Virus record (IMG/VR): IMGVR_UViG_3300045988_142085
Location: 128,001-192,000 of that record
Strand: one strand, 5' to 3'
Length of the DNA stretch: 64,000 nucleotides
Origin: a virus
The notes under the pieces are model-generated. The model worked only from the letters and a program-made list of their open reading frames with translations. It searched no databases and was not told the DNA's origin. A program made the position numbers and the translations under genes. This document shows, piece after piece, positions 6,681-42,990 of the stretch. Position 1 is the first letter of the stretch, and each line of letters begins with the position of its first letter.

Positions 6681-7534
6681 AACACCTTCATAACATTGCC
6701 GTTATTACGGCTTTGATTATACCCAGTAAACACAGGTCCAGTTTTTTGAGTTAACTTAACATAAGATGCTGTTACTTCGACACCGACCGTAGAATACGGA
6801 GTTAAGAATTTAATCGGAACTTCGGCTCTACACATATATACATAAGCTGGTGCAATACGATGATCGTTTTGTAAATCGTGACCACCTTCATGGTATGTAT
6901 TATCGACAATAAGGACTAAGTCGTTCCATTTTGCCGGTAGCTGAACTGTATCGCCTACATTATTAATAGAGCTATTCGGAATTTCGTTCCAAGCAGCCGG
7001 AATATATTTACGTTCTTTAAGCTGAAAAATATCTTCGCCTAAAGAACGTTGAGTTCCGGTATTAATATTTCTAGAATATAATTCAGATCCATCAGGATTA
7101 ATTAATTTAAGCCAGTCGCCATCGATAATTAATTTAACGCCGTTAAGAGTCATCAATGTATTACCATCTTTATGACCCGTAACTTTATTGTCGCCAGTAA
7201 CTGTAAGCTTATGTTGGTAATCTAAATTTTGATTCTTTAAGATTGCATTATTTAAACTATCTTTCGTTAAATAACGATCATCTTGTTCTTGTTTATTAAA
7301 ATAAGATTTAATAGTTTCATTAAATCCATTTTTAATATTATCTAAAGATTCAGAAAAACTTTTTCTAGCGTTATTATAGATTAAATTAATCTTATTAAAT
7401 TCTTTAATAAAGTCGTTTGTCGAAATCGTCTTATTAGAAGTATCTTTAATAATATCTTTTAAACTATCTATAATTTTATTAATTTCTTGTGTCGCTTTAT
7501 ATGACACAGAAAATTTTTCCATTCGTTTTGCCAT
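6671..7534 (-). CDS. Putative receptor-binding / tail fibre protein, paralog 2 of 3
   Basis: 287 aa. Motif IKSYFNKQEQDDRYLTKD. Central region alignable with paralogs, C-terminus divergent. Confidence 0.5.
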   Translation of the reverse strand: MAKRMEKFSVSYKATQEINKIIDSLKDIIKDTSNKTISTNDFIKEFNKINLIYNNARKSFSESLDNIKNGFNETIKSYFNKQEQDDRYLTKDSLNNAILKNQNLDYQHKLTVTGDNKVTGHKDGNTLMTLNGVKLIIDGDWLKLINPDGSELYSRNINTGTQRSLGEDIFQLKERKYIPAAWNEIPNSSINNVGDTVQLPAKWNDLVLIVDNTYHEGGHDLQNDHRIAPAYVYMCRAEVPIKFLTPYSTVGVEVTASYVKLTQKTGPVFTGYNQSRNNGNVMKVLWR

Positions 7535-9121: not shown

Positions 9122-9160
9122 GAATTATATTACAAAGAAAGCCTGTCTTATGACAGGCTA
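9122..9160 (-). terminator. Rho-independent terminator downstream of dnaE
   Basis: Perfect 8-bp stem AGCCUGUC-AUAA-GACAGGCU followed by UUCUUUGUAAUAUAA on the minus strand. The dnaE stop codon lies inside the 5' arm and loop. Confidence 0.55.
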
Positions 9161-11100
9161 ACTTTCTTAACAATCATCTTAGAATCAGATTCTTTTTTGC
9201 CAGATAAATAGACTGTTTCGCCATACTTAATATAAGGCAAATTATTTAAATAAATAGAACTGAATACGATCAAATCAATTTCGACGCCGCCACCAACATC
9301 GCCTTTACAAAATGCCATAAGATTGCCGGACTTATCTTTTCGTTCATCGACTTTGGTGATTCTAACTTTAACGTTTTCTACTTCTGTTTTATCTTCCATA
9401 GAAAACCATTCTGGTGTATATGTTACCGGGCAATTTAATGTGTCCATTTCAAAGCTCATAATAAGTTCCTTTCCATAATTATCATTATTTAAACGTTCAT
9501 CTTTATCTTTTCTTAAATCATAAAACTGATTCATTAATTTTAAACGATTACTTTCGATATTAGAGAAAGCACCCGACTTAATTAAAGATGAACCAACACG
9601 TTTATTAAACGCTTTTTTACCAATTTTATTCATAGCATCTTCTAAAGAAGTGTAAGGTCGATGTTCAATTATGGCAGGTATGGAAGATAGACCCACGCCC
9701 TTAATGGACCCAAGACCAAATAAGATAGTGTTTCCATTAGGAGTAAAATCGAGATTTGATACATTAATGTCCGGAACTTCAACGTCGATCCCTTCCTTTC
9801 TAACCAATGGAATATAACGAACTAAATCTTCTAAAGATTGCATCGATAAATATGCAGCAAAGAATTCTACTGGATGATACAATTTAAGCCAAGTAGTAAG
9901 CATACTGGTAAATGAGTAGGCTACAGCATGAGATTTGTTAAATAAATAATTTGAATATCCTTGTATTGTTTCAAAATAATCTTCCATTTCTTTCTCAGTA
10001 TAACCATTAGCAAGAGCACCTTTAATTTCAGGACCATATTTACCTTTAGGGTCATACCAAGGAGCTTTATCGTCTTGTTCCCAACCTTCTGGACCTTCAC
10101 AATTTTTCTTGCCATAAATATGACAACGTTTAAGCATAGGCATTTTATCTGCTTTTTTCTTGGCCAGAATTTTTCTAGAAAGTGAATCTGCTTGGTTATC
10201 ATCAAAGCCAGAAACTTGTTTAGAGATCATCATAATCTGCTCTTGATACGGGATTACAGAATATGTATTACTTAAAATATTATCGATACCGCGTAAAGGA
10301 GCAGTTAATTCCTCTTTACCTTGTTTACGCTTAGCATATTGATGGTGCATATTTGCACTTAATGGGCCCGGTCTCAAAAGTGCCGTGGTTGCCGCAATAT
10401 CGTCGAAGCAAGTTGGCTTCATCTCTTTTAAATAATCTTTAAACATATCAGATTCTAATTGGAACACGCAATCTGATTTAGCTTGTGCCAATAATTTATA
10501 TAATTTTTTATCTTCGATATCGAAGCTATCATATAACCATTGAACATCTTTATTTAAATGTCTTAATGTTGTTTCTATTATGGATAATGTTTTAAGACCG
10601 AGGATGTCGAGTTTTGCTGTACCTAGTTCTTCACATTCAGTACCTGTAAATAACGTAATTGTTACGCCGTCAGCATCAGTACGTGTCGGAAAATAATCAT
10701 CGACACGACAAGGCATTGCTAGAATACCAGAAGCATGAACACCGAAGTTACGTTTAAGACCTTCGAATGCACGAGCCAATCTAAATAATTCTTTATTGTC
10801 GACTTCTAATTTCTGCCATTTAGTATATAAAGATTTTTCTGTTTCGTTGCCATCTTTTAATGCATCATAATGTTTAAACTTTGGTTGAGGAGGTACGACA
10901 TCTTTAAAGTCGTCAATAATTTTAGATAATGCATTCATTTTATCGAATGGAATTTTAAGTGCGCGACCAATATCTTTTAGGCCAGATTTAACGCCCATTT
11001 GAGAATATGTACCAATATGCGCTACGTTACTTTCGCCGTATAAATCTTTAATATGTTCAATAACTTTGTCTCGACCAAAGTAGCTAAAATCTGAATCTAT
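9148..11100 (-). CDS. dnaE: DNA polymerase III alpha (DnaE-type), exon 2: C-terminal ~650 aa with palm C-part, fingers and OB fold
   Basis: The frame is open upstream of the first Met back to 11100 and encodes IDSDFSYFGRDKVIEHIKDLYGESNVAHIGTYSQMGVKSG..., which is the canonical continuation of the PDIDIDF palm motif. No start codon or RBS at the 5' end. An in-frame TAA lies immediately upstream, inside the intervening sequence. Confidence 0.8.
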   Translation of the reverse strand: MDSDFSYFGRDKVIEHIKDLYGESNVAHIGTYSQMGVKSGLKDIGRALKIPFDKMNALSKIIDDFKDVVPPQPKFKHYDALKDGNETEKSLYTKWQKLEVDNKELFRLARAFEGLKRNFGVHASGILAMPCRVDDYFPTRTDADGVTITLFTGTECEELGTAKLDILGLKTLSIIETTLRHLNKDVQWLYDSFDIEDKKLYKLLAQAKSDCVFQLESDMFKDYLKEMKPTCFDDIAATTALLRPGPLSANMHHQYAKRKQGKEELTAPLRGIDNILSNTYSVIPYQEQIMMISKQVSGFDDNQADSLSRKILAKKKADKMPMLKRCHIYGKKNCEGPEGWEQDDKAPWYDPKGKYGPEIKGALANGYTEKEMEDYFETIQGYSNYLFNKSHAVAYSFTSMLTTWLKLYHPVEFFAAYLSMQSLEDLVRYIPLVRKEGIDVEVPDINVSNLDFTPNGNTILFGLGSIKGVGLSSIPAIIEHRPYTSLEDAMNKIGKKAFNKRVGSSLIKSGAFSNIESNRLKLMNQFYDLRKDKDERLNNDNYGKELIMSFEMDTLNCPVTYTPEWFSMEDKTEVENVKVRITKVDERKDKSGNLMAFCKGDVGGGVEIDLIVFSSIYLNNLPYIKYGETVYLSGKKESDSKMIVKKVSLS

Positions 11101-12294
11101 CTTTTACACCCTAGCTTTCGCTATATTTATTAAGGAATAGACCATATCTTCACCATATTTTTATTTTTAAAATAAAAACTTAGGTTGCTCCATTTCGGGC
11201 TTATCACCCTACGTCCCTTTGGACTGGCCGTTGAACGTTCCCCTATTCGAGGCTTCGCTGCTGATTTTCCAATCTTGTCTTTTTTTAGCATATCACACTT
11301 TTGCTTATTTCATCAATATGTTGTAGCAAGACAAGCTCTAAGGATGTTCCAGCAATTTAGAGCTCTTTAAACTTTAGATTTCTCTAAAGCACGACTATTG
11401 TTTAAATTGCATAAATCTAAATATCTTTGATATTTTCTATTCAAATATATCGTTGCATTTTTATATAATAGATCTAAAATTTTTTGTGTTTTTAAGTTTC
11501 CACCAAATTCTAAAGACATAACTTCTTGATAATCTTTTCTTTTATAATATTTATTAGCAGAAAAGCCAAGTTTTTCTTCTATATAATTATTAACAAAATC
11601 AAGAAATTTTTTAGTTGAAACTAATTTAAAAGCATAACTGTTACTTAATTCTGTGTTGGTGTGAGCAATAGAACCATTCCCATCAAAATATCCTCGTATA
11701 AAATCTGATACATAATTTTCTAATAAAGATATGTCTGGAGGAATTAAAATATTTGTTTTGTGTTCTACTAAGTTATATTTTAATAAATCATTAAACATAA
11801 TTTCAGAATAATATATTATTCTACTATAGCTATTTTTAGAATAAGAGTTTTTAGTTGCTTCATATGTTTTAATGGGATGATTACTCTCTAAACTTTTATT
11901 TAATTTTTCTAAATGAGTATAATCACAAGTAGACAATGTAAGACCTACTTTGTATGAATTATTATTTTTAGAAATATATCCATCAGCCATTAAAAAACCT
12001 AACCAATATGCTTTTTCTTCTGTGTCTATTTTATTGAAAAATTTTTCATTAAAATGATAGCGTGAATTAGCTTCTCTATGAGATCTAGGCGTTAAATTTT
12101 TCTTAATAAAGTATGAAACTTTTCCAGTACTAATACCTAATTCTTTTGCTATATATGGTGATCCATGTTTTTTATTATATAAATCTACAATTTTATTTTG
12201 AATTTCTTTTGATAATTTTGACATATATGTTACCTCATATTTATATTGATTTATAAATATTATAACATATATAATTATCTTATGCAATCATATA
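11101..12294 (-). mobile_element. Intervening sequence (probable group I intron, ~1194 nt) interrupting dnaE; carries a LAGLIDADG homing endonuclease ORF
   Basis: Exon 1 ends ..CCA GAU (last nt U) and the IVS ends ..UAAAAG (last nt G), matching group I conventions. Joining restores LPD|IDSDF in frame. The 3' 266 nt (11101..11366) is GC-richer and non-coding. The P1-P9 fold was not verified. Confidence 0.5.
11367..12224 (-). CDS. LAGLIDADG homing endonuclease, double-motif monomeric type, intron-encoded
   Basis: Motifs WLGFLMADGYI and IRGYFDGNGSI about 100 aa apart. Probable start is Met22 of the listed ORF (ATG 12224..12222) with GAGGU 8 nt upstream. N-terminal HTH-like region. Confidence 0.8.
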   Translation of the reverse strand: MSKLSKEIQNKIVDLYNKKHGSPYIAKELGISTGKVSYFIKKNLTPRSHREANSRYHFNEKFFNKIDTEEKAYWLGFLMADGYISKNNNSYKVGLTLSTCDYTHLEKLNKSLESNHPIKTYEATKNSYSKNSYSRIIYYSEIMFNDLLKYNLVEHKTNILIPPDISLLENYVSDFIRGYFDGNGSIAHTNTELSNSYAFKLVSTKKFLDFVNNYIEEKLGFSANKYYKRKDYQEVMSLEFGGNLKTQKILDLLYKNATIYLNRKYQRYLDLCNLNNSRALEKSKV

Positions 12295-13686
12295 ATCTGG
12301 CAAGCCTGTTCTGTCGATAGTCAAAAAACGACCGAACAGTAAATCATATTTAATAGGATCGATATTTTTAGTGATGCCAATACACCATAATACTAAACTA
12401 CCTGCAGCGCTCCCGCGTCCAGGACCAGTCATTACACCATTATTATCGGCCCAGTTAATATATTCACGAACGATAAGCATATAATCAGCGAAATCTTTAT
12501 AGTTAATAATGTTAAGTTCATACGCTAAACGTTGTTCATATCGTCTAATATCGTTAGCGATATAATCATATCTTTTTGCTAACTCATATAAACCTTTGTA
12601 AGCTAGTTCACGCAATTTACGTTTAGTATTTTTAACGCCAGGAAGTTTAGGCATTAATGGTACATCACTGCCTAATTTATATTCGCCGACTTTATTTGCG
12701 ATTTCTTGAGTATTATGCATTGCTTCTAAATATAAAGCATATTTTTCACGAGCAACACTTACTTCAGTTTCAGACGTATTAATTAAATATTTAAATCCGT
12801 CTTGCATTTCTTCTTCGTTTTTAAGCCAGAAGTTATGATCGTATTTCATACGGTTAGGATTATAAATATCGGTGCCAGTGCCGACACATACTAATACATC
12901 ATGATCTTTATTATCCTCTTTGAGGACATAATGTACATCGCTTGTCGCAACGAGTTTAATATTATGCTTCGTCGACATTGTTAAATAAAAATTATTTACT
13001 TTGACTTGGTCGTCGAATGCATTAGGTTGAACTTCGAGATAGAAGTCGTCACCGAAAATATCTTTATATTCTAAGATAAGTTCTTCGGCTTTTTCTAAAT
13101 CGTCTTTACGAACACGACTTGCTACCATATTCGCAACACATGCTGTCGTACAAATAACGCCTTCGCTATATTTACGAAGCATCGGCATATCGAACAAAAA
13201 GCGCCCGTTGTATGTACATACTTTAGCAGATTCACTTTGTAATTTAATTAAATTATTTAACCCTGTTTGATTTTTAGCTAATAAGATTAAATGATATTGT
13301 CTTGTGTCGTACATATGTTTTTCTGCACGAGCCTTAATATCTTTAATGCCTTTAACGCCTTTTTTGCCGGACGCTAAATCTTCAGCTTCTTTTTCTGTTA
13401 AGTCTCCGGCTTCTTTCGCCTTCAAAGCCGCATCGGCCCAGCGTTCTTCAACAGGTTTAGATAATGAAAGAGTGTCCCATGTTTGATATCCTTCATAACC
13501 TAAGATAGGCTTAACACCTTGTTTTTTACATTCTTGTAAAAATTCATAAATACCGCCCATATGATTATGGTCTGTGATGGCTAAACTTTCCATACCGAGT
13601 TCTTTAGCACGGCTAACTAACTTCGGTATATGACAATAGCCATCTAAAAAGCTATATGATGTATGTACATGTAAATGCGTAAACAT
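12295..13686 (-). CDS. dnaE: DNA polymerase III alpha (DnaE-type), exon 1: PHP domain plus N-terminal part of palm
   Basis: MFTHLHVHTSYSFLDGYCHIPKLVSRAKELGMESLAITDHNHMGG is a PHP domain. GPGRGSAAGSLVLWCIGITKNIDPIKYDLLFGRFL is a PolIII alpha palm signature. AAGGAGG RBS before the ATG at 13686. The coding frame terminates 5 codons into the IVS. Confidence 0.85.
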
Positions 13687-13748
13687 TTTATTATTCCTCC
13701 TTATAAAAAATATAATTGTTTATCAACAAATATATAATATTATGTATA

Positions 13749-14987
13749 CTATTCTAACCAATAAATTTTATTAAATTTCCAAATTAATTTACATTTTTGT
13801 GCGTTTACTTTTTTACAGTGTTTAGTTTTTGATTGAAAATTCAAAACTAATTGTTCTGGGTATAAAGCTGTAACATAGCCTGTGTGAATCTCTCCATTTT
13901 TATACGTATAAGAAACTAAATCTCTATGCTTAATCCCTAGTACATTATTAGTTTTTGCTTTTGATTTTCTCCTCATTGGTTTAATAGTCCATTCTTTTAT
14001 ATTGCAAGAATCTGGAATGTCATTTGTAATACATATAGCATCATTACTATGAGATTTTTCTATATTCCATTCAATTCTTTTATTCGCAGTTGCGCCGCCA
14101 TTAGTCAAATGCAATAATCCTAATTCAGATATTTTATTTCGTAAATAATTTTTACCTTGCATAACATGCATTGCATAATCGAATCGTTTAGGCTTAGAAT
14201 TAATTATTTTAAAATATTTATCTTCAAAATCTTTTTCTTTACCTTTTGTTTTGTCATGACATTTGAAACAAAGAGTAATTAAATTTCCAATAGTATCTGC
14301 TCCATGATATTTTCTTGCTCTTATGTGATGTACTTCTAATTTGCAATTAGATTTTCCACATTCTTGACATTTATAGTTATCACGAATAATAGTTGCTTTT
14401 CTAAGATTTTCATCTAAACGATTAGATTTTTGATATTGCCATTTATAAGGTTTATAATCGTCTGTCATTGCACGAATATCAATACAAACATCTTCAAGAT
14501 AATATTCTTTAATATTTATCCATTTATTTAGTTGATATAATACTCTTAAAATAGCATCTTTCTTTTGTTTAATAGTTGGTGTTAATCTACCGACTTTTTT
14601 GGAAGATGAGCGATTATTAAACCTCATTGGTCTATGTCTTTTATGGTAACGATGATATTGTCTATATCTACGTCTAGTATCCATCAAATGTTTCACATCT
14701 TGACGTTGTTCAATAATCCCTTTAAATACTACTTTATTTTTAGTAGAACATTTCTGAACAATAGCTATACCAACATGTATAGAACCATCGTCTATACCAC
14801 AAATTATATAACTTTTATCATTTTCATTAAATTCAACTTTTTTATTTAGTTGAATTACCATTGGGTATTTAGATTTTAATTTTGCTCTGCCTTTTCTAAT
14901 TAGATACCAGCCTTTATTCACTTTTGTTGGCGCTAATGGTTTATTATCTTTATCAATTACAAAGCAATATTCAATTTTATTTTCCAT
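13749..14987 (-). CDS. iscB: IscB-like RNA-guided nuclease (OMEGA family; RuvC-I / Arg-rich bridge helix / RuvC-II / HNH / RuvC-III), solo with no TnpA
   Basis: N-terminus [47 protein letters not shown] is PLMP-like. The segment [17 protein letters not shown] is Ruv[24 protein letters not shown] is the bridge helix. LEDVCID is Ruv[38 protein letters not shown] is [13 protein letters not shown] is RuvC-III. RBS AAGGAAGG before the ATG near 14987. The listed ORF extends 81 codons further upstream, probably spurious read-through of the omegaRNA region. Confidence 0.8.
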
Positions 14988-15260
14988 TTCTGGAAACCTT
15001 CCTTTCGGAGTATTTTTCGTCTTGCCAATGTCGTGGATGGTGCATGTGTTTCTCTGTTGTCTATACAGGACGTTAGTATAGTTTCTTGATTGGCACTCAC
15101 AGAGCTTCAGACTGACGAGCACATCTAAAGGTGTGTCTTTAACCTTTTCCATAACGTAGTTCATATCTGCAGCATATCTTTCGATAGCAGCAATCACTAA
15201 GGCTAGAAACCTATTATCAAGCAAATACAAATAAGAAATATAATATATATTCGCCCACTT
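14975..15260 (-). ncRNA. Candidate omegaRNA scaffold for IscB (predicted from position and composition only)
   Basis: IscB omegaRNAs are encoded immediately 5' of, and overlapping, the iscB start. This ~280-nt interval is GC-richer than its surroundings and has local complementarity (e.g. CUCUGU...ACAGAG). The guide would lie at its 5' end near 15245..15297. Confidence 0.3.
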
Positions 15261-15297
15261 TTTCGTATTTTTATTTATAAAATAAATTACTTAATAA

Positions 15298-16962
15298 TTA
15301 GTCCTTAATTATACTTTTTACATTTAAAGTATATAGCCTAGGCTTCATGAAGTTTTTCTCGATATCGCCACACATCGTAATTCTATCGCCAACTTTAATT
15401 CCGAGATCTCCTAATCTCCATGCCCAGATACTTAATTTTGTTTTTCCGTCGAATACTGTATACAATATATTATCAGGATTATTTCCGCTCGGTTTAATAT
15501 CGAGAACACTTAAATCTTTTATTCTAACTTGTGGTTTCGTAAAAGTTAAATTGTCGAACGAGAATAAATTAAATGATTTATAAGATTCAACTGTTAAATC
15601 AGACAATTTAAGATCGATATATTCAGGTTCTTTAATCTCGATAGTAACTTCTTCAGGTGGCACATAGGATGCGATTTTTGCGCTCAGAGCGAGTTTAAAC
15701 TCGTTTTGCATATCTTTATATATCGTAAAGCCACAAGCGGCAGCATGGCCACCATATGAAGCTACAGAAGGTTCATTAAACAACAACCAATCTAATGGAT
15801 ACGTATTACTTCGAGCAGAACCATGAACTACTTCACTATCCGACAATCCAACAAAACTAGGTTTGCCGCTATATTCTTGTAAGCGTCCTGCAAGTATACC
15901 GATAATACCGACCGGTATTTCATCGTTAACGACAAGAGCTATTTCGCTATCATCGTCTTGCTTATCGTATTGTTTAATAATCCTTTCGCTAAAATCTTTA
16001 GTCAATTCTTTGCGTCGAGTATTATATTCTTCGACAGTATTACATGTTTCGATCGGTTCTTCACTTACATCGAATAATTTAATAGAAGCACCGATATCGA
16101 ATAATCGAGAACATGCATTTAACCGAGGAGCAATTTGCCAAGATACAAGATCAGCCGTAATAGCTTCCTTAGTTAGCATATCCAAGAATACTCGTAATGT
16201 GTTCGGTATTTGTTTTTTCTGAATCTGATTAAAACCTTTACGAACGATAGCTTGATTAATGTAACTGCTTAACGGCATTACGTCGGCAATAGTACCGATA
16301 GCCGTTAAATAAAGTAATTTATCGCTTTCATAATGATTATAGCCTAATTCATTTTCTATCGCTCTGCAGAAATAATAAGCGACACCAGCGCCGCATATTG
16401 CTTTTGCCCAGTGATCGCTTTCGGTTATATGTTGGTCAACGATAATTGTATCTGGTAAAATTTCTTGCGGTAAATGATGGTCAGTAATAAGAACCGGAAT
16501 ATTGTATTTCTTACAAAGTTCGACTTCTTCGACTTTAGTTATACCGTTATCGACAGTCATAATAAGCGGTTTAATTCGTCGCTCATATTTTTTATTAACG
16601 TCTTCGATAAACTTAACACTTAAACCATATCCATCGCTTCGTTCTGGAAAATATACTTCGCTATGAGTCGGAACAATTTTATTTAAAAACTTTTTCATAA
16701 TCGTTCCGCTTGTCATTCCATCGACATCATAATCGGCATATACATAAATATCTCGACCTTCTTTAAAGCATTGCACTAAAAACTTAGCTGCTTTATCGAT
16801 ATTTACAATCGGTTCTGTTTCATCGATGTTGAGTATCTTATCTTGGTCGTATAGAATATTATATGCTACGTCTAATGGAATTTGTTTTAGGGCGAGTATT
16901 TGCGCCACTAAATCGTTAACTTTTAAAGTTAACCTGTACTTATCTTTATCTATCATAAGCAA
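15298..16962 (-). CDS. recJ: RecJ-like single-stranded DNA exonuclease (DHH/DHHA1 phosphoesterase)
   Basis: DHH motif VLITDHHLP, Asp-rich metal site YADYDVDGMTSG, and DHHA1 signature YGGHAAACGF. Confidence 0.8.
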   Translation of the reverse strand: MLMIDKDKYRLTLKVNDLVAQILALKQIPLDVAYNILYDQDKILNIDETEPIVNIDKAAKFLVQCFKEGRDIYVYADYDVDGMTSGTIMKKFLNKIVPTHSEVYFPERSDGYGLSVKFIEDVNKKYERRIKPLIMTVDNGITKVEEVELCKKYNIPVLITDHHLPQEILPDTIIVDQHITESDHWAKAICGAGVAYYFCRAIENELGYNHYESDKLLYLTAIGTIADVMPLSSYINQAIVRKGFNQIQKKQIPNTLRVFLDMLTKEAITADLVSWQIAPRLNACSRLFDIGASIKLFDVSEEPIETCNTVEEYNTRRKELTKDFSERIIKQYDKQDDDSEIALVVNDEIPVGIIGILAGRLQEYSGKPSFVGLSDSEVVHGSARSNTYPLDWLLFNEPSVASYGGHAAACGFTIYKDMQNEFKLALSAKIASYVPPEEVTIEIKEPEYIDLKLSDLTVESYKSFNLFSFDNLTFTKPQVRIKDLSVLDIKPSGNNPDNILYTVFDGKTKLSIWAWRLGDLGIKVGDRITMCGDIEKNFMKPRLYTLNVKSIIKD

Positions 16963-40400: not shown

Positions 40401-42540
40401 CCCTATCTAAATCTTCTGTTGTCTTGTATATTTTAACTTCTAATACTTGATATGCATCAGAATTATACATATCGGCATATGGATTAATAACGTAAGTATT
40501 TAATAACTCGATCTGATGTTCAGGCAGATGAGCGCCAACTACTGTTCTCGTTATTTCTTGATCGTTATATAACGGATGAGTACAAACAAATTTTACTGTA
40601 TAATCGTTATTCTTTTGTCGGAAAGAATAATAACGACCAGCAAAATAACGCATTGTTTCATTTGATGTCGTGACAATACTATCTGTATTATCTTTAGTTT
40701 TAATTATATTATTGTCTGCATCATATGCTGTAATCGTAGAACCTTTCACATAATCGAATGATACGTCCCAAATTCGGTTATTAAACGTTACGTTATTTAC
40801 ATTAAAAGGAGTCGGTGCATTTACTTTTTTATATCCTTCAACAGTAACTGTTTTAGACTCTGGAACTTTATTAGTTTTATTAGCTTCGACAGTAAAGGTT
40901 TTAACCTCGGGATAATAAAATAACGGAATTCTATAAACATGATCTTCTACAGATAAGTTGCTCGGAACTCTCGTATGAATAATTGTCCCAGACGCGTCTT
41001 TAACAACGATAGTAGAACCTGATTCTGCCTGGATGTCTAAAGCTTTCGTGCCTTCATATTCACCAGTTAAGCCATCTCTTCCGTCGACTACACTAACACT
41101 AAGAGGCGTTCTAGGAGTATGAAGTAATATTTCGATATTTTTACTAATTGTATTATCTGCTTTATCGTTAGAAACTGTTGCCGTATATGTTTCAGCTCGT
41201 TCTGCTAAAGGAATATTTACTATATATTTACCGTTATCGTCAACAACAATATCTCTAGCTATTACTCCACCAGAGCCAGGGCCAATACCCATAATAGTAA
41301 CTTTTGATCCAGGTAATGTTGTCACAGTAACTTTTGTCCCGGCAGGTGTCGTGACATAATCGATATCGGCCGTTAAAATAATTTTTCGACGATCGACAAC
41401 TAAAGTCTTTTCTTTACTTAACCCATTACTAGGATTACGAACTATAACAGTAATTTCATATTGATCTTCTTCACGAGGTAAATTATATTGAACTCCCATA
41501 CCAATATTTTGAGAAGCATATAATTTTTTACCGTCACGTTTAAATGTTACGGTATTACCGATTTGAGTTTTTACAGAAGCTCTAGCCATTAGAGAATTAG
41601 GATATAACATTTCAGCATCTAATGTTAGCTTATCTGTTTCAGTTTGAGTGCCTTTAATTAATGCTTTACTATAGTTAGTTTGATAACCAAAGTAAGTCGA
41701 GAAAAGATTTAAATAATAATCGTGTACTTTACGCGGCACTTTAAATTTAGTAATGCTACGTTTAGTAGTATCGTTAAAATATTCGTCTCGACGATGTGTC
41801 GCAATTAATCGAGATTTCTTAGTCGTGAAAACTGTAACTTCGGCATGTGCAGGATCATCGGCTGGATAAGAAACTGTGTAACTCATCGGTGTAATCGCTA
41901 AACCGTCTTCAGAAACATTTTCTGCCGTATTGATCCAAATGTCTTTATCTTCGAAGAACCAAGGGTGTCTTTCTTGAATAAAGATAAACGGATATAATTC
42001 GCTCAAACGTTCATAATTAATATATCGAACTGTAACAGTAGAACCTAATCGGATATCGTCAGCATCGATTTGGAAATACTTCATATTAATTTCTTCGAGG
42101 CTATCGTCTAAAGTGTTACATCTTACAGTATCGTTAATTAATACTTCTAATTGATTTGTTCCTGGAATATATAATCCAGAGCCAACTTTAAATTGTGCTT
42201 TACCGTCGATTAATTTACCGATACGAGTAATTTCTTCACGGTCATGATAATAAAATCGATTATGTTCTAGTTCGAATTTAACGATTGTATAATATTCGAC
42301 ATTGATTACGGCGTCTTTAACAAGCTTATCTGTACCATCTTTACGAATACCCATCGGTACCCAGTCAGATTCGCCAGTTAATTTAATACTAAGATTACCA
42401 GTCTTATCGTTTACTAATAACGATCCATCAGGAATATCGGCCCAATAATAGTTATCTTTTTCGCTATCAGTAATAATAATAGCTGTATCTTTACTTATGC
42501 TGTATTCATTTAATTTTCGAATACCCCAAGTAGGTTTCAT
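37420..42540 (-). CDS. Giant baseplate/fibre protein sharing the N-terminal module (1706 aa)
   Basis: N-terminal NYYWADIPDGSLLVNDKTGNLSIKLTGESDWVPMG and FKVGSGLYIPGTNQLEVLINDTVRCN. Very long Asn/Tyr-rich remainder. Confidence 0.5.
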   Translation of the reverse strand: MKPTWGIRKLNEYSISKDTAIIITDSEKDNYYWADIPDGSLLVNDKTGNLSIKLTGESDWVPMGIRKDGTDKLVKDAVINVEYYTIVKFELEHNRFYYHDREEITRIGKLIDGKAQFKVGSGLYIPGTNQLEVLINDTVRCNTLDDSLEEINMKYFQIDADDIRLGSTVTVRYINYERLSELYPFIFIQERHPWFFEDKDIWINTAENVSEDGLAITPMSYTVSYPADDPAHAEVTVFTTKKSRLIATHRRDEYFNDTTKRSITKFKVPRKVHDYYLNLFSTYFGYQTNYSKALIKGTQTETDKLTLDAEMLYPNSLMARASVKTQIGNTVTFKRDGKKLYASQNIGMGVQYNLPREEDQYEITVIVRNPSNGLSKEKTLVVDRRKIILTADIDYVTTPAGTKVTVTTLPGSKVTIMGIGPGSGGVIARDIVVDDNGKYIVNIPLAERAETYTATVSNDKADNTISKNIEILLHTPRTPLSVSVVDGRDGLTGEYEGTKALDIQAESGSTIVVKDASGTIIHTRVPSNLSVEDHVYRIPLFYYPEVKTFTVEANKTNKVPESKTVTVEGYKKVNAPTPFNVNNVTFNNRIWDVSFDYVKGSTITAYDADNNIIKTKDNTDSIVTTSNETMRYFAGRYYSFRQKNNDYTVKFVCTHPLYNDQEITRTVVGAHLPEHQIELLNTYVINPYADMYNSDAYQVLEVKIYKTTEDLDRVHLTLDTHPEIQNNLTLSYGGSNAKPIKYLGSNLLDKINGSKSSYLEFYGKDDLSNEETLTVLPTINDYLSNAYEGNNGSYYFIFKVDNFYDLMENRNINIKVNNKATNDINIPTTILHWKNIDKFSEYSTESNDYQDIQNKLRSVKIKHSDVNNASNKSNSQRILLKELFTYKQVNDHIKYIHPNLFLQIIVAAYKFTKYIGDNTEEDRRESEQKSDEFISKVRTKYNLELPKHIVDIREIWSNYLYYGNKIFDDNGKAPVLTFKHNLLLYPQMFAYLNASYSILSTGYFEDYYTVDDTIVLDIEQDNIDDIIIGNKINSLDWKEKIKKIFKEYYPNETHSFYPEIYPISSKNQLLFCKMKNIPSNFNSNKNVWFYNNLIYTDKLDSIGEGALCNSYYSSIFFNYGRLHNIGDNAFRYPINFGITAFNIGTSNTFEFGNRKYNPFLGNSSGLTTIKNPIKEDLDIVEQICPLPNYLSDPFKVLLTSTKDIGISDVFFNYSSVEQIDYNCDSVTFVDENHNPIRYDNKHNDTYLGLTINYDLYFTKHNLNKNKIINDGIGRYDLFGHFRFTRKLKEIDLSYFTNYYLYTHDFESSSVKKITFPSVYLATVDLKNTYRNTAVEPFDDCQNLKTIDNLDFVLCATNVIPAEFFRGAKLLKADVNLNYIDNFRYASFYNSSDGLSFVYKNRNITIDHLGNQINLDKSFLGLTNPQDDQGITLNDSVFANSNISQQEIDKIINRFVNIPYSTFRDNKNIKELNINSNILIAASFYYQKFNKINIRSTSLEILEFTDKVFNVDLMKSNNDNYIVIAPNLQYFYCEKYGYTADKNHLDIGNPKMSFFAKKDNFKFFPINDDYDFIKPTSYFIEDFLGKSNGYYNSYFTKEESEGVINNLELEILVPNYRYYLFDKSINLSDIKIKKLTITLEDSYYKPSRDISNAVGGSHYLNDKNGYWISDKRVIEKMRWPALEEIIVKGRARRNYEETVLGVKIKYV

Positions 42541-42555
42541 TATTTAAAGGCCTCC

Positions 42556-42990
42556 TTAATAATACACGATATCACAAGTTAATTCTTTAAGGTCGTTAAT
42601 TTTATATTTAACGTCTTTAGGTAATTCTATTACGATATTAAAATCATAATAATTATGTTCGCTATCTCCTTTATTCGGAGCGCCACTAAGTACGACTTCG
42701 TTAGTTAAGTTAACTGTTAATGTATCACTTAAACGAGTTGTCGGTAACTCAGTAGAATCTGCATTTAAGATTTTAATATAATCTAGCAATACAGAATCTT
42801 CAATATCGGTGAAATAAAAATTAACACCGAAGTTTTTTAGGTCTGGTTGTTTCTCGATACCCATATAATTATTATATAGCCGAACCGGAATTACAGTACG
42901 AGAAGCCGAAGTAATAACTCCGGCTTTATAAGTACTATAAATATTAAATTCTTGTTCGTCGAGAACCATCCATGTCAATGTATTTTGCAT
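42556..42990 (-). CDS. Hypothetical small structural protein
   Basis: 144-aa ORF between large structural genes. Confidence 0.4.
   Translation of the reverse strand: MQNTLTWMVLDEQEFNIYSTYKAGVITSASRTVIPVRLYNNYMGIEKQPDLKNFGVNFYFTDIEDSVLLDYIKILNADSTELPTTRLSDTLTVNLTNEVVLSGAPNKGDSEHNYYDFNIVIELPKDVKYKINDLKELTCDIVYY

Follow-up and report, generated by a model that had tools for sequence, protein, structure and literature searches.

The iscB locus

The DNA analyzed here, referred to as the window, is a stretch of 64,000 nucleotides from an uncultured phage of ~236 kb (IMG/VR record IMGVR_UViG_3300045988_142085, positions 128,001 to 192,000 of that record). On its minus strand, a gene for an IscB-type RNA-guided nuclease lies together with an upstream RNA gene in a unit of ~1.6 kb, inserted between a recJ-like gene and dnaE. 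An earlier note, made from the sequence alone, had placed the nuclease gene between recJ and dnaE and in the same orientation as both, and the flanking genes were indeed found to encode DHH/DHHA1 and PHP/DNA_pol3_alpha domains. The features of the locus, in the direction of transcription, are as follows.

15298..16962, minus strand: recJ-like gene (DHH/DHHA1), the upstream flank, with its 3′ end presumed to give rise to read-through transcripts
15307..15322, minus strand: putative 16-nt guide, TGTAAAAAGTATAATT, within the last codons of recJ and just outside the element
13703..15306, minus strand: whole element, ~1.6 kb (left-junction motif, omegaRNA gene, iscB and right end), from comparison of filled and empty sites
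15301..15306, minus strand: left-junction motif AAGGAC, a near-copy of AAGGAG that resembles a transposon-encoded motif (TEM), from comparison with empty sites
15209..15301, minus strand: P1 stem of the predicted omegaRNA (5′ arm 15288..15301, 3′ arm 15209..15224), from minimum free energy folds of 30 copies
15273..15287 and 15225..15268, minus strand: hairpins A and B, enclosed by P1, from minimum free energy folds
14988..15209, minus strand: predicted core omegaRNA scaffold with a long-range GCC..AGUG/CAUUGGC pairing, its last hairpin overlapping the iscB ribosome-binding site, from the HEARO match and RNAalifold
13749..14987, minus strand: iscB coding sequence, 412 amino acids, a RuvC-HNH RNA-guided nuclease by profile and structure matches, motifs and the ratio of nonsynonymous to synonymous substitution rates (dN/dS)
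13703..13748, minus strand: right end of the element, AT-rich with weak palindromes, terminating in ...ATATTTTTTAT
13697..13702, minus strand: AAGGAG, the dnaE Shine-Dalgarno sequence and putative transposon-adjacent motif (TAM) and insertion motif, present once in empty sites
12280..13686, minus strand: N-terminal part of dnaE (PHP and the first portion of the pol III alpha domain), flanking the element downstream, with its ATG at 13684..13686

The minus-strand open reading frame (ORF) 13749..15230 opens at a TTG codon (15230) and runs to a stop at 13749. The start at 15230, which the earlier note had adopted, is spurious, and the iscB coding sequence covers 13749..14987 only. All 67 viral homologues begin with MENK... 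at the ATG equivalent to 14987, preceded by a GGAAGG ribosome-binding site, and the identical 412-amino-acid protein is also the predicted gene product on an ENA contig of 236,270 bp (ERZ27263288 k119_70580), where recJ, iscB and dnaE follow in the same order. Five contigs with the identical IscB protein share the insertion. The extra 81 codons (243 nt) 5′ of ATG 14987 are non-coding and overlap the omegaRNA.

Judged by its profile matches and motifs, the protein is an IscB in which all catalytic motifs are present. Pfam assigned the RRXRR (5.9e-43) and HNH (PF01844, 2.6e-10) domains, and the NCBIfam equivalog NF040563, 'RNA-guided endonuclease IscB', was passed with 274.4 bits against a cut-off of 175. 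Structure searches matched HfmIscB, for which a solved structure exists (PDB 9K2Z chain A; E 1.8e-235, ~87% identity over 409 amino acids), and OgeuIscB (7XHT/7UTN; E ~1e-22). Such a search had been named in the earlier note as a decisive check of its claim that the full IscB architecture is intact, and the claim is borne out, including the list of motifs. In the numbering of the 412-amino-acid protein, these are PLAP (17-20), GIDDG (64-68), an Arg-rich bridge helix (105-126), LEDVCID (164-170), CQEC (207-210), HH (220-221), N235, CFKCH (240-244) and HSNDA (313-317). The RuvC-I aspartate, given as lying near 14790, is D66 of GIDDG, encoded at 14790-14792.

The RuvC domain is split in the manner of IscB, with D66 in RuvC-I, E165 in RuvC-II and H313/D316 in RuvC-III, and it contains an inserted HNH domain with C207/C210, H220/H221, N235 and C240/C243 all in place. 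In the phmmer alignment, D66, E165, H220/H221, N235 and H313/D316 correspond to the GIDPG, LE, YHH, N and H..DA blocks of OgeuIscB. The homologue in the PDB bears an H to A change at the first HNH histidine, which fits a catalytic role of that residue. Size and domain content are likewise those of IscB: a PLMP-type N-terminus (here PLAP), a bridge helix, 412 amino acids and no recognition (REC) lobe, FNNR being followed directly by LTP. The gene is under purifying selection (median dN/dS 0.106 for 19 copies), and its ORF is intact in 65 of 68 copies.

A structured RNA upstream of iscB

The ~240 nt upstream of iscB are GC-richer; the earlier note had counted these same nucleotides as codons while also predicting an omegaRNA at 15290..14980 on the minus strand. 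The only Rfam match of note in this region was HEARO (RF02033) at 15010..15218 (minus strand; 31.3 bits, E 0.0011). RNAalifold analysis of 21 homologous upstream regions, spanning 53% to 92% protein identity, gave stronger and independent support, with compensatory changes on both sides in 19 of 30 predicted pairs. The long-range GCC..AGUG/CAUUGGC helix is among the covarying parts, GCC/GGC being replaced by GGG/CCC in one lineage. As expected of an omegaRNA, the predicted RNA is structured, lies directly upstream of iscB on the same strand and keeps its P1 stem; judged by its low score for the family, it belongs to a divergent subtype of HEARO.

In 14 lineages, the best pairing partner of the 18 nt 5′ of the core is the sequence that starts at the AGGA-x-C boundary of the element. 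Since the P1 pairing begins at the left boundary, the scaffold starts at the very edge of the element. P1 has the same build throughout, 3 bp and a bulge followed by 9-12 bp, and its sequence varies by lineage (ATTATTAAG, CTAACAGTTAAT, TCAAATAGTT, CTGAACAG, TAAATAAGTA and others). The 5′ arm, TAATTATTAAGTAA, contains stop codons in three frames. In the clade of the window, P1 encloses two extra hairpins, and in the copy of Staphylococcus phage Golestan101-M it is a simple hairpin. A motif, AAGTGGRCA, was noted inside hairpin B (window 15251..15260, minus strand). It is kept in several lineages (L104, L106, L066, L040), occurs twice in L104 and is absent from the Golestan101-M copy (L113) with its simple P1.

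Boundaries, empty sites and other copies of the element

Copies of the element were taken from IMG/VR viral contigs of up to ~230 kb. The recJ|dnaE junction was empty in all 35 sampled viral contigs with 76-98% identical DnaE, where recJ ends 8-10 nt before the dnaE ATG without any insert. Conversely, none of the 67 viral loci with 59-92% identical IscB had recJ or dnaE as a flank. Clustering by right flanks gave 29 insertion sites among 68 copies, usually with one copy per contig, and eight pairs of filled and empty sites were found, that of the window included. Loci L030 and L031 are 96-99% identical across the ~1.6 kb element and ~35-40% identical, that is unrelated, outside it. The element thus has properties of an insertion sequence (IS), namely a discrete unit with conserved ends, multiple unrelated sites and precise empty sites, and an AGGAG-type motif at the right junction with a similar AGGAC at the far end. 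By these comparisons, it is a discrete mobile unit of ~1.6 kb and not a fixed phage gene. The comparison of the recJ-dnaE junction among relatives had been suggested in the earlier note, whose picture of a domesticated nuclease embedded in the replication region does not agree with its outcome, nor with the near-identical copies in unrelated flanks.

Empty sites have the layout ...N16-(A)AGGAG-N5-12-ATG, in which the motif is the Shine-Dalgarno sequence of a co-oriented downstream gene. Filled sites read ...N16-(A)AGGAC-TAATTRTTAAG... at the left junction and ...ATTTTWW-(A)AGGAG-...ATG at the right junction. AGGAG was present at 22 of the 28 listed right junctions, the other six having AGGGA, AGGGG, AGGAA or GGGAG, and AGGAC at 22 of the 28 listed left junctions. 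In every case the element directly adjoins an AGGAG-type motif that belongs to a co-oriented gene downstream. An AGAAC variant of the left motif recurs at three different sites (L007, L008, L039), which suggests that the left motif belongs to the element. AGGA-x-C is also found at the boundary of distant copies from a Staphylococcus phage, Clostridiaceae, Virgibacillus and Bacillus. The right end is kept for ~45-60 nt past the iscB stop in most copies, with ...AAACACATTTTA in the Staphylococcus phage copy. Subterminal hairpins occur at both ends of the element, so the statement in the earlier note that no obvious IS200/605 hairpin ends were seen is not supported: the termini are conserved, and the AGGAC/AGGAG pair marks the two junctions.

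The boundaries can be placed only to within the shared (A)AGGA, which is indistinguishable from a short target-site duplication. A duplication of fixed length was considered (apparent lengths 4-9 nt, ending in GGA) and rejected as the main explanation, given the recurrence of AGAAC at three sites and the empty site of L008, which has only GGA in common with both filled junctions. The apparent duplication in L006 is mostly conserved right-end sequence, CATTT. Duplication through fill-in of a staggered IscB cut was also rejected, as inspection of either strand gave no common motif 3 nt beyond the junction.

In the window, the left motif AAGGAC and the following TAA (15298..15300), which is the recJ stop, change the C-terminus of RecJ from ...KEE* to ...KD*, and the dnaE Shine-Dalgarno sequence is left intact. 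With stops in three frames at its left end and an intact Shine-Dalgarno sequence at its right, the insertion would be nearly harmless to both recJ and dnaE. Synonymous divergence between the iscB of the window and the nearest copies is 0.45-0.56, and that of dnaE from the same phages 0.57-0.83. Because the value for iscB is not above that for dnaE, the insertion is lineage-specific, though it need not be very recent.

Several further observations concern the distribution and fate of the copies. The window itself holds an empty site for the element of L004/L005 at 42538..42576 (minus strand), which reads ...TGTGATATCGTGTATTATT|AAGGAGGCC...ATG (42540); the L004 flank in guide position differs from it at 2 of 16 nt. 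Decaying copies were seen in L007 (IscB 4724..), L023 and L024, all with premature stops, and in L159, with an internal deletion. The right end of L007 carries ~30 nt of a foreign ribosome-binding site, ATG and first codons, as if this flank had been brought from a former site. Second copies or miniature derivatives of the element were not found in the window, and a scan of viral contigs for other cargo behind the left end of the element gave only IscB-bearing or decayed copies.

No near-identity DNA match of the 5.8 kb region was found in cultured phages, and the closest cultured DnaE is only 38.5% identical. Elements with 87-90% identical IscB lie on contigs, one of 208 kb, that were binned as uncultured Gemella or Veillonella metagenome-assembled genomes (L103, L105, L108); these may be phage contigs binned with their host, hinting at host range. 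Homologues 51-59% identical to the IscB of the window occur in Staphylococcus phages of the Herelleviridae. In one of these, the cultured Staphylococcus phage vB_SsapH-Golestan101-M (L113/L115, LC557520.1 126135..129904), IscB is annotated as HNH endonuclease and the element has the same AAGGAC boundary. A gene annotated as transposase lies 1.4 kb downstream of this IscB; it was considered as a possible TnpA and turned out to be TnpB (OrfB_IS605).

A proposed homing mechanism

In IscB elements, the sequence that flanks the IS end on its 5′ side serves as the guide, and its transcription begins outside the IS; iscB and the gene upstream have the same orientation, TAM and TEM hardly differ, and cleavage occurs at the donor joint (PMC10055086). 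The anatomy described above fits this scheme, and we consider it likely that the window carries a non-autonomous IscB/omegaRNA element of the IS200/IS605 kind (ISC element) which cuts empty sites and is copied into them by recombination. The earlier note had listed guide-directed homing among plausible roles, and it remains so.

In outline, the element would have inserted directly 5′ of the dnaE Shine-Dalgarno sequence, which in empty genomes sits within the last recJ codons. Since the predictions gave neither a promoter nor a terminator from recJ to the scaffold, the omegaRNA would be cut from recJ read-through transcripts and would bear the last ~16 nt of recJ as its 5′ guide. (Nor was a promoter for dnaE predicted in the right end of the element.) The IscB-omegaRNA complex would then recognize the same 16 nt followed by AAGGAG, a combination expected only where the recJ|dnaE junction is empty, be it in a co-infecting relative or in a genome copy that has lost the element by excision. 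IscB would cleave the empty junction, and a genome with the element would then serve as the template for recombination, resulting in homing or retention. The filled site would be spared, since AAGGAC-TAA replaces AAGGAG-GAA.

Presence/absence polymorphism at the homologous site was established among the related phages. Three insertions other than that of the window show perfect agreement between predicted guide and empty site: L001, L006 and L007 have, left of the junction, the same 16 nt that occur at the empty sites of L006, L001 and L008, respectively.

Several results weigh against this scheme. The putative guide of the window has a perfect match in none of the 35 relatives, each of which shows at least one mismatch, mostly at the TAM-proximal positions 1, 3 and 4. 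Copies at the same site (L051/L052) are no more similar than their flanks, which gives no direct trace of recent homing. The HEARO score is far below the gathering score of 83 in the window, and the relatives reach only 37-42 bits. The AGGAG-type motif is a predicted TAM, read from junctions, and the TEM-like AAGGAC differs from AAGGAG by one base in the hexamer, so that discrimination between self and target is assumed. Furthermore, a subterminal 19-nt inverted repeat, 95% in L012 (5706..5724 / 7251..7269) and 79% in L016 (5707..5725 / 7251..7269), is undescribed for IS200/IS605; it is not detectable in the window copy, whose ends show more degeneration than in other copies. Finally, no Y1 TnpA was found in the element, and none of ten small ORFs of the window matched Pfam Y1_Tnp. 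A tblastn search with IS200/IS608 TnpA queries, a weak test, gave only E>0.7 against the window and all loci.

Weak as these tests were, they covered the fetched loci and the window (64 of ~236 kb) and revealed no transposase. This agrees with the earlier note in that no TnpA is encoded nearby. That note had treated a copy without TnpA as unusual, but tnpA is found near only ~1.5% of iscB genes (PMC10055086); with ~98.5% of iscB genes lacking it, a missing tnpA in cis is the normal state. To reach new sites, the element needs a transposase provided in trans, most likely a Y1 TnpA.

The putative 16-nt target (15307..15322, minus strand) coincides with a local diversity peak among close relatives (L068-L082, L098), with a nucleotide diversity (pi) of 0.144 that ranks 4 of 44 windows of sequence; pi in the surrounding 150 nt is 0.007-0.064, and the differences at the target site cluster next to AGGAG. 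This peak could reflect escape from cleavage or merely a relaxed RecJ C-terminus.

A further-reaching version of the homing scheme is possible, although we hold it to be doubtful. According to this, the element would be a phage-adapted RNA-guided gene drive, in which the Shine-Dalgarno sequence serves as both landing pad and TAM, so that any gene start is a possible site, and the upstream gene supplies the guide by read-through. It would be harmless to its carrier and, without a transposase of its own, would spread between co-infecting phages of the human microbiome or kill competitors among them. If true, an arms race would have left its mark in the diversity peak that relatives show at the 16-nt target.

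Alternative explanations

Different explanations have to be weighed for how the element moves and for what IscB does. Transposition might not be of the Y1 type at all and might instead involve an IS607-like serine recombinase acting at the shared GG, or another double-strand mechanism via the inverted repeat, with the role of IscB unchanged. GG is indeed present at both junctions and once in empty sites, GG is also where IS607 elements, whose TnpBs rely on AGGAG/GAGGG TAMs, are integrated (PMC13565253), and both the inverted repeat of L012 and the failure to detect a Y1 TnpA in the window and loci would fit. Association of iscB with serine recombinases has not been found (PMC10055086), however, and the present analysis likewise detected no recombinase. 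At the right junction of several loci, the bases that precede GG on the 5′ side match the target and not the element (CA in L052, TA in L001/L039), which is easier to reconcile with a target-derived pentamer than with a crossover at GG. Subterminal hairpins and a TAM/TEM-like pair are, moreover, classic IS200/IS605 traits, and we regard this explanation as unlikely. Somewhat less probable still is that the element is no longer mobile and IscB is kept as a domesticated weapon against competing phages or plasmids. The intact ORF under purifying selection, the insertion common to five contigs with identical protein and the somewhat degenerate ends of the window copy are compatible with this, and cutting relatives too diverged for gene conversion would amount to competitor killing, a concept from phage homing endonucleases (PMC13565253). 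Purifying selection, however, is equally expected for a selfish homing element. Furthermore, a domesticated weapon accords poorly with the empty junction in all sampled relatives, with a family spread over 29 sites at usually one copy per contig and with near-identical copies in unrelated flanks, and the guide position is filled by whichever gene lies upstream and not by a conserved, selected spacer.

The source of the guide could also be internal to the element. In that case, a constant guide would be formed by the ~16 nt that precede the core scaffold on its 5′ side (...TTGCTTGATAATAG), transcribed from an internal promoter and with a target resembling the left terminus of the element. This segment and the left terminus, CTAATTATTAAG, are close to reverse complements of each other and covary, and several lineages have a conserved AAGTGGACA motif shortly upstream. 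The complementarity is better read as an RNA stem, however, given its fixed build in 14 lineages, its tolerance of G-U pairs on the sense strand and its position, which is where HEARO has its 5′ hairpin. Promoter prediction gave no sigma-70-like site there on the minus strand, and the would-be target has a 1-nt indel in the seed relative to the "guide", all of which makes an internal guide highly improbable. Hardly credible is an ordinary protein-only HNH homing endonuclease acting without an RNA guide. The label 'HNH endonuclease' of homologues in public phage records would suggest it, but the protein has the full RuvC-bridge helix-HNH-RuvC order, scores above the cut-off of the IscB equivalog and shares ~87% identity with an IscB of solved structure, and its gene is preceded by a covarying 5′ RNA.

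Comparison with known systems

The element shares with the IscB-omegaRNA systems of ISC elements (HfmIscB 9K2Z, OgeuIscB 7XHT/7UTN) the domain order, the catalytic residues and an upstream omegaRNA overlapping the 5′ end of the ORF, as well as the absence of a CRISPR array and of tnpA. It differs in its divergent omegaRNA (31 bits, gathering score 83), whose first stem is enlarged by two internal hairpins, and in its replicon, an uncultured phage. A parallel in anatomy is offered by the ISGst IscB/TnpB elements of Geobacillus stearothermophilus (Meers et al., PMC10055086): a flank-derived guide, co-oriented transcription from upstream, a TAM/TEM pattern, an empty site composed of guide target and TAM, and mostly non-autonomous elements. 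The motifs there are AT-rich (TTCAT/TTCAC), whereas AGGAG/AGGAC of the phage element are Shine-Dalgarno sequences. The phage element also has no known cognate TnpA, and the role of the "sister chromosome" would fall to another copy of the phage genome or to a co-infecting phage.

IS607-family TnpB elements resemble the phage element in their AGGAG/GAGGG TAMs and GG insertion (PMC13565253). RAGATH-18 RNA, which is related to IS607 TnpB elements, occurs with TnpB in Staphylococcus phages that also carry IscB/HEARO (PMC13346280). In the window, however, the effector is IscB, no serine recombinase was found, and the predicted guide lies at the 5′ end of the RNA and not at the 3′ end. With phage homing endonucleases (T4 Seg/Mob, and LAGLIDADG enzymes in group I introns), the element has in common that a selfish nuclease gene between replication genes is present or absent among relatives and would be expected to spread in mixed infections; the dnaE of the window also has a group I intron with a LAGLIDADG ORF. 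In contrast to these, target recognition by IscB would rely on an RNA guide and a short motif instead of protein, and the IscB element family occupies many non-homologous sites, unlike classical homing genes.

IscB with HEARO RNA in phage genomes is not new. More than 16% of HEARO/IscB loci have been classed as viral or prophage (Goltsman et al., PMC9755519), again at odds with the idea that a phage-borne copy lacking TnpA is exceptional, and HEARO is listed in Silviavirus phage genomes (PMC13346280). These reports concern presence only. No new kind of system is revealed by the present analysis either; what is new is the natural history, i.e., boundaries, empty sites, the Shine-Dalgarno-type insertion motif and the dispersal to 29 sites among uncultured phages. 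It provides a well-delimited natural case of an IscB element in phage genomes, with ends, filled and empty sites, a predicted guide, a predicted AGGAG TAM and a close homologue of solved structure. With it, 'non-restorative' homing by OMEGA nucleases between co-infecting phages becomes directly testable. In addition, full-length PHROG families labelled 'HNH endonuclease', as homologues are in public phage records, match the IscB of the window, and many such phage annotations hide RNA-guided nucleases.

Other insertions in dnaE

The dnaE gene downstream of the element (9148..13686, minus strand) is itself split into two ORFs by ~1.3 kb. The insert contains a group I intron at 11119..11414 (Rfam 59.4 bits, above the threshold of 50 set for gathering), as well as an ORF for a LAGLIDADG homing endonuclease at 11367..12287. 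This ORF was found in 5 of the 35 relatives (L068, L079, L080, L084, L096). In L074, L082, L102, L101 and L083, the match to the C-terminal part of dnaE is shifted downstream by ~2 kb, or there is another, different LAGLIDADG-like match within, which suggests other mobile insertions at a second dnaE position.

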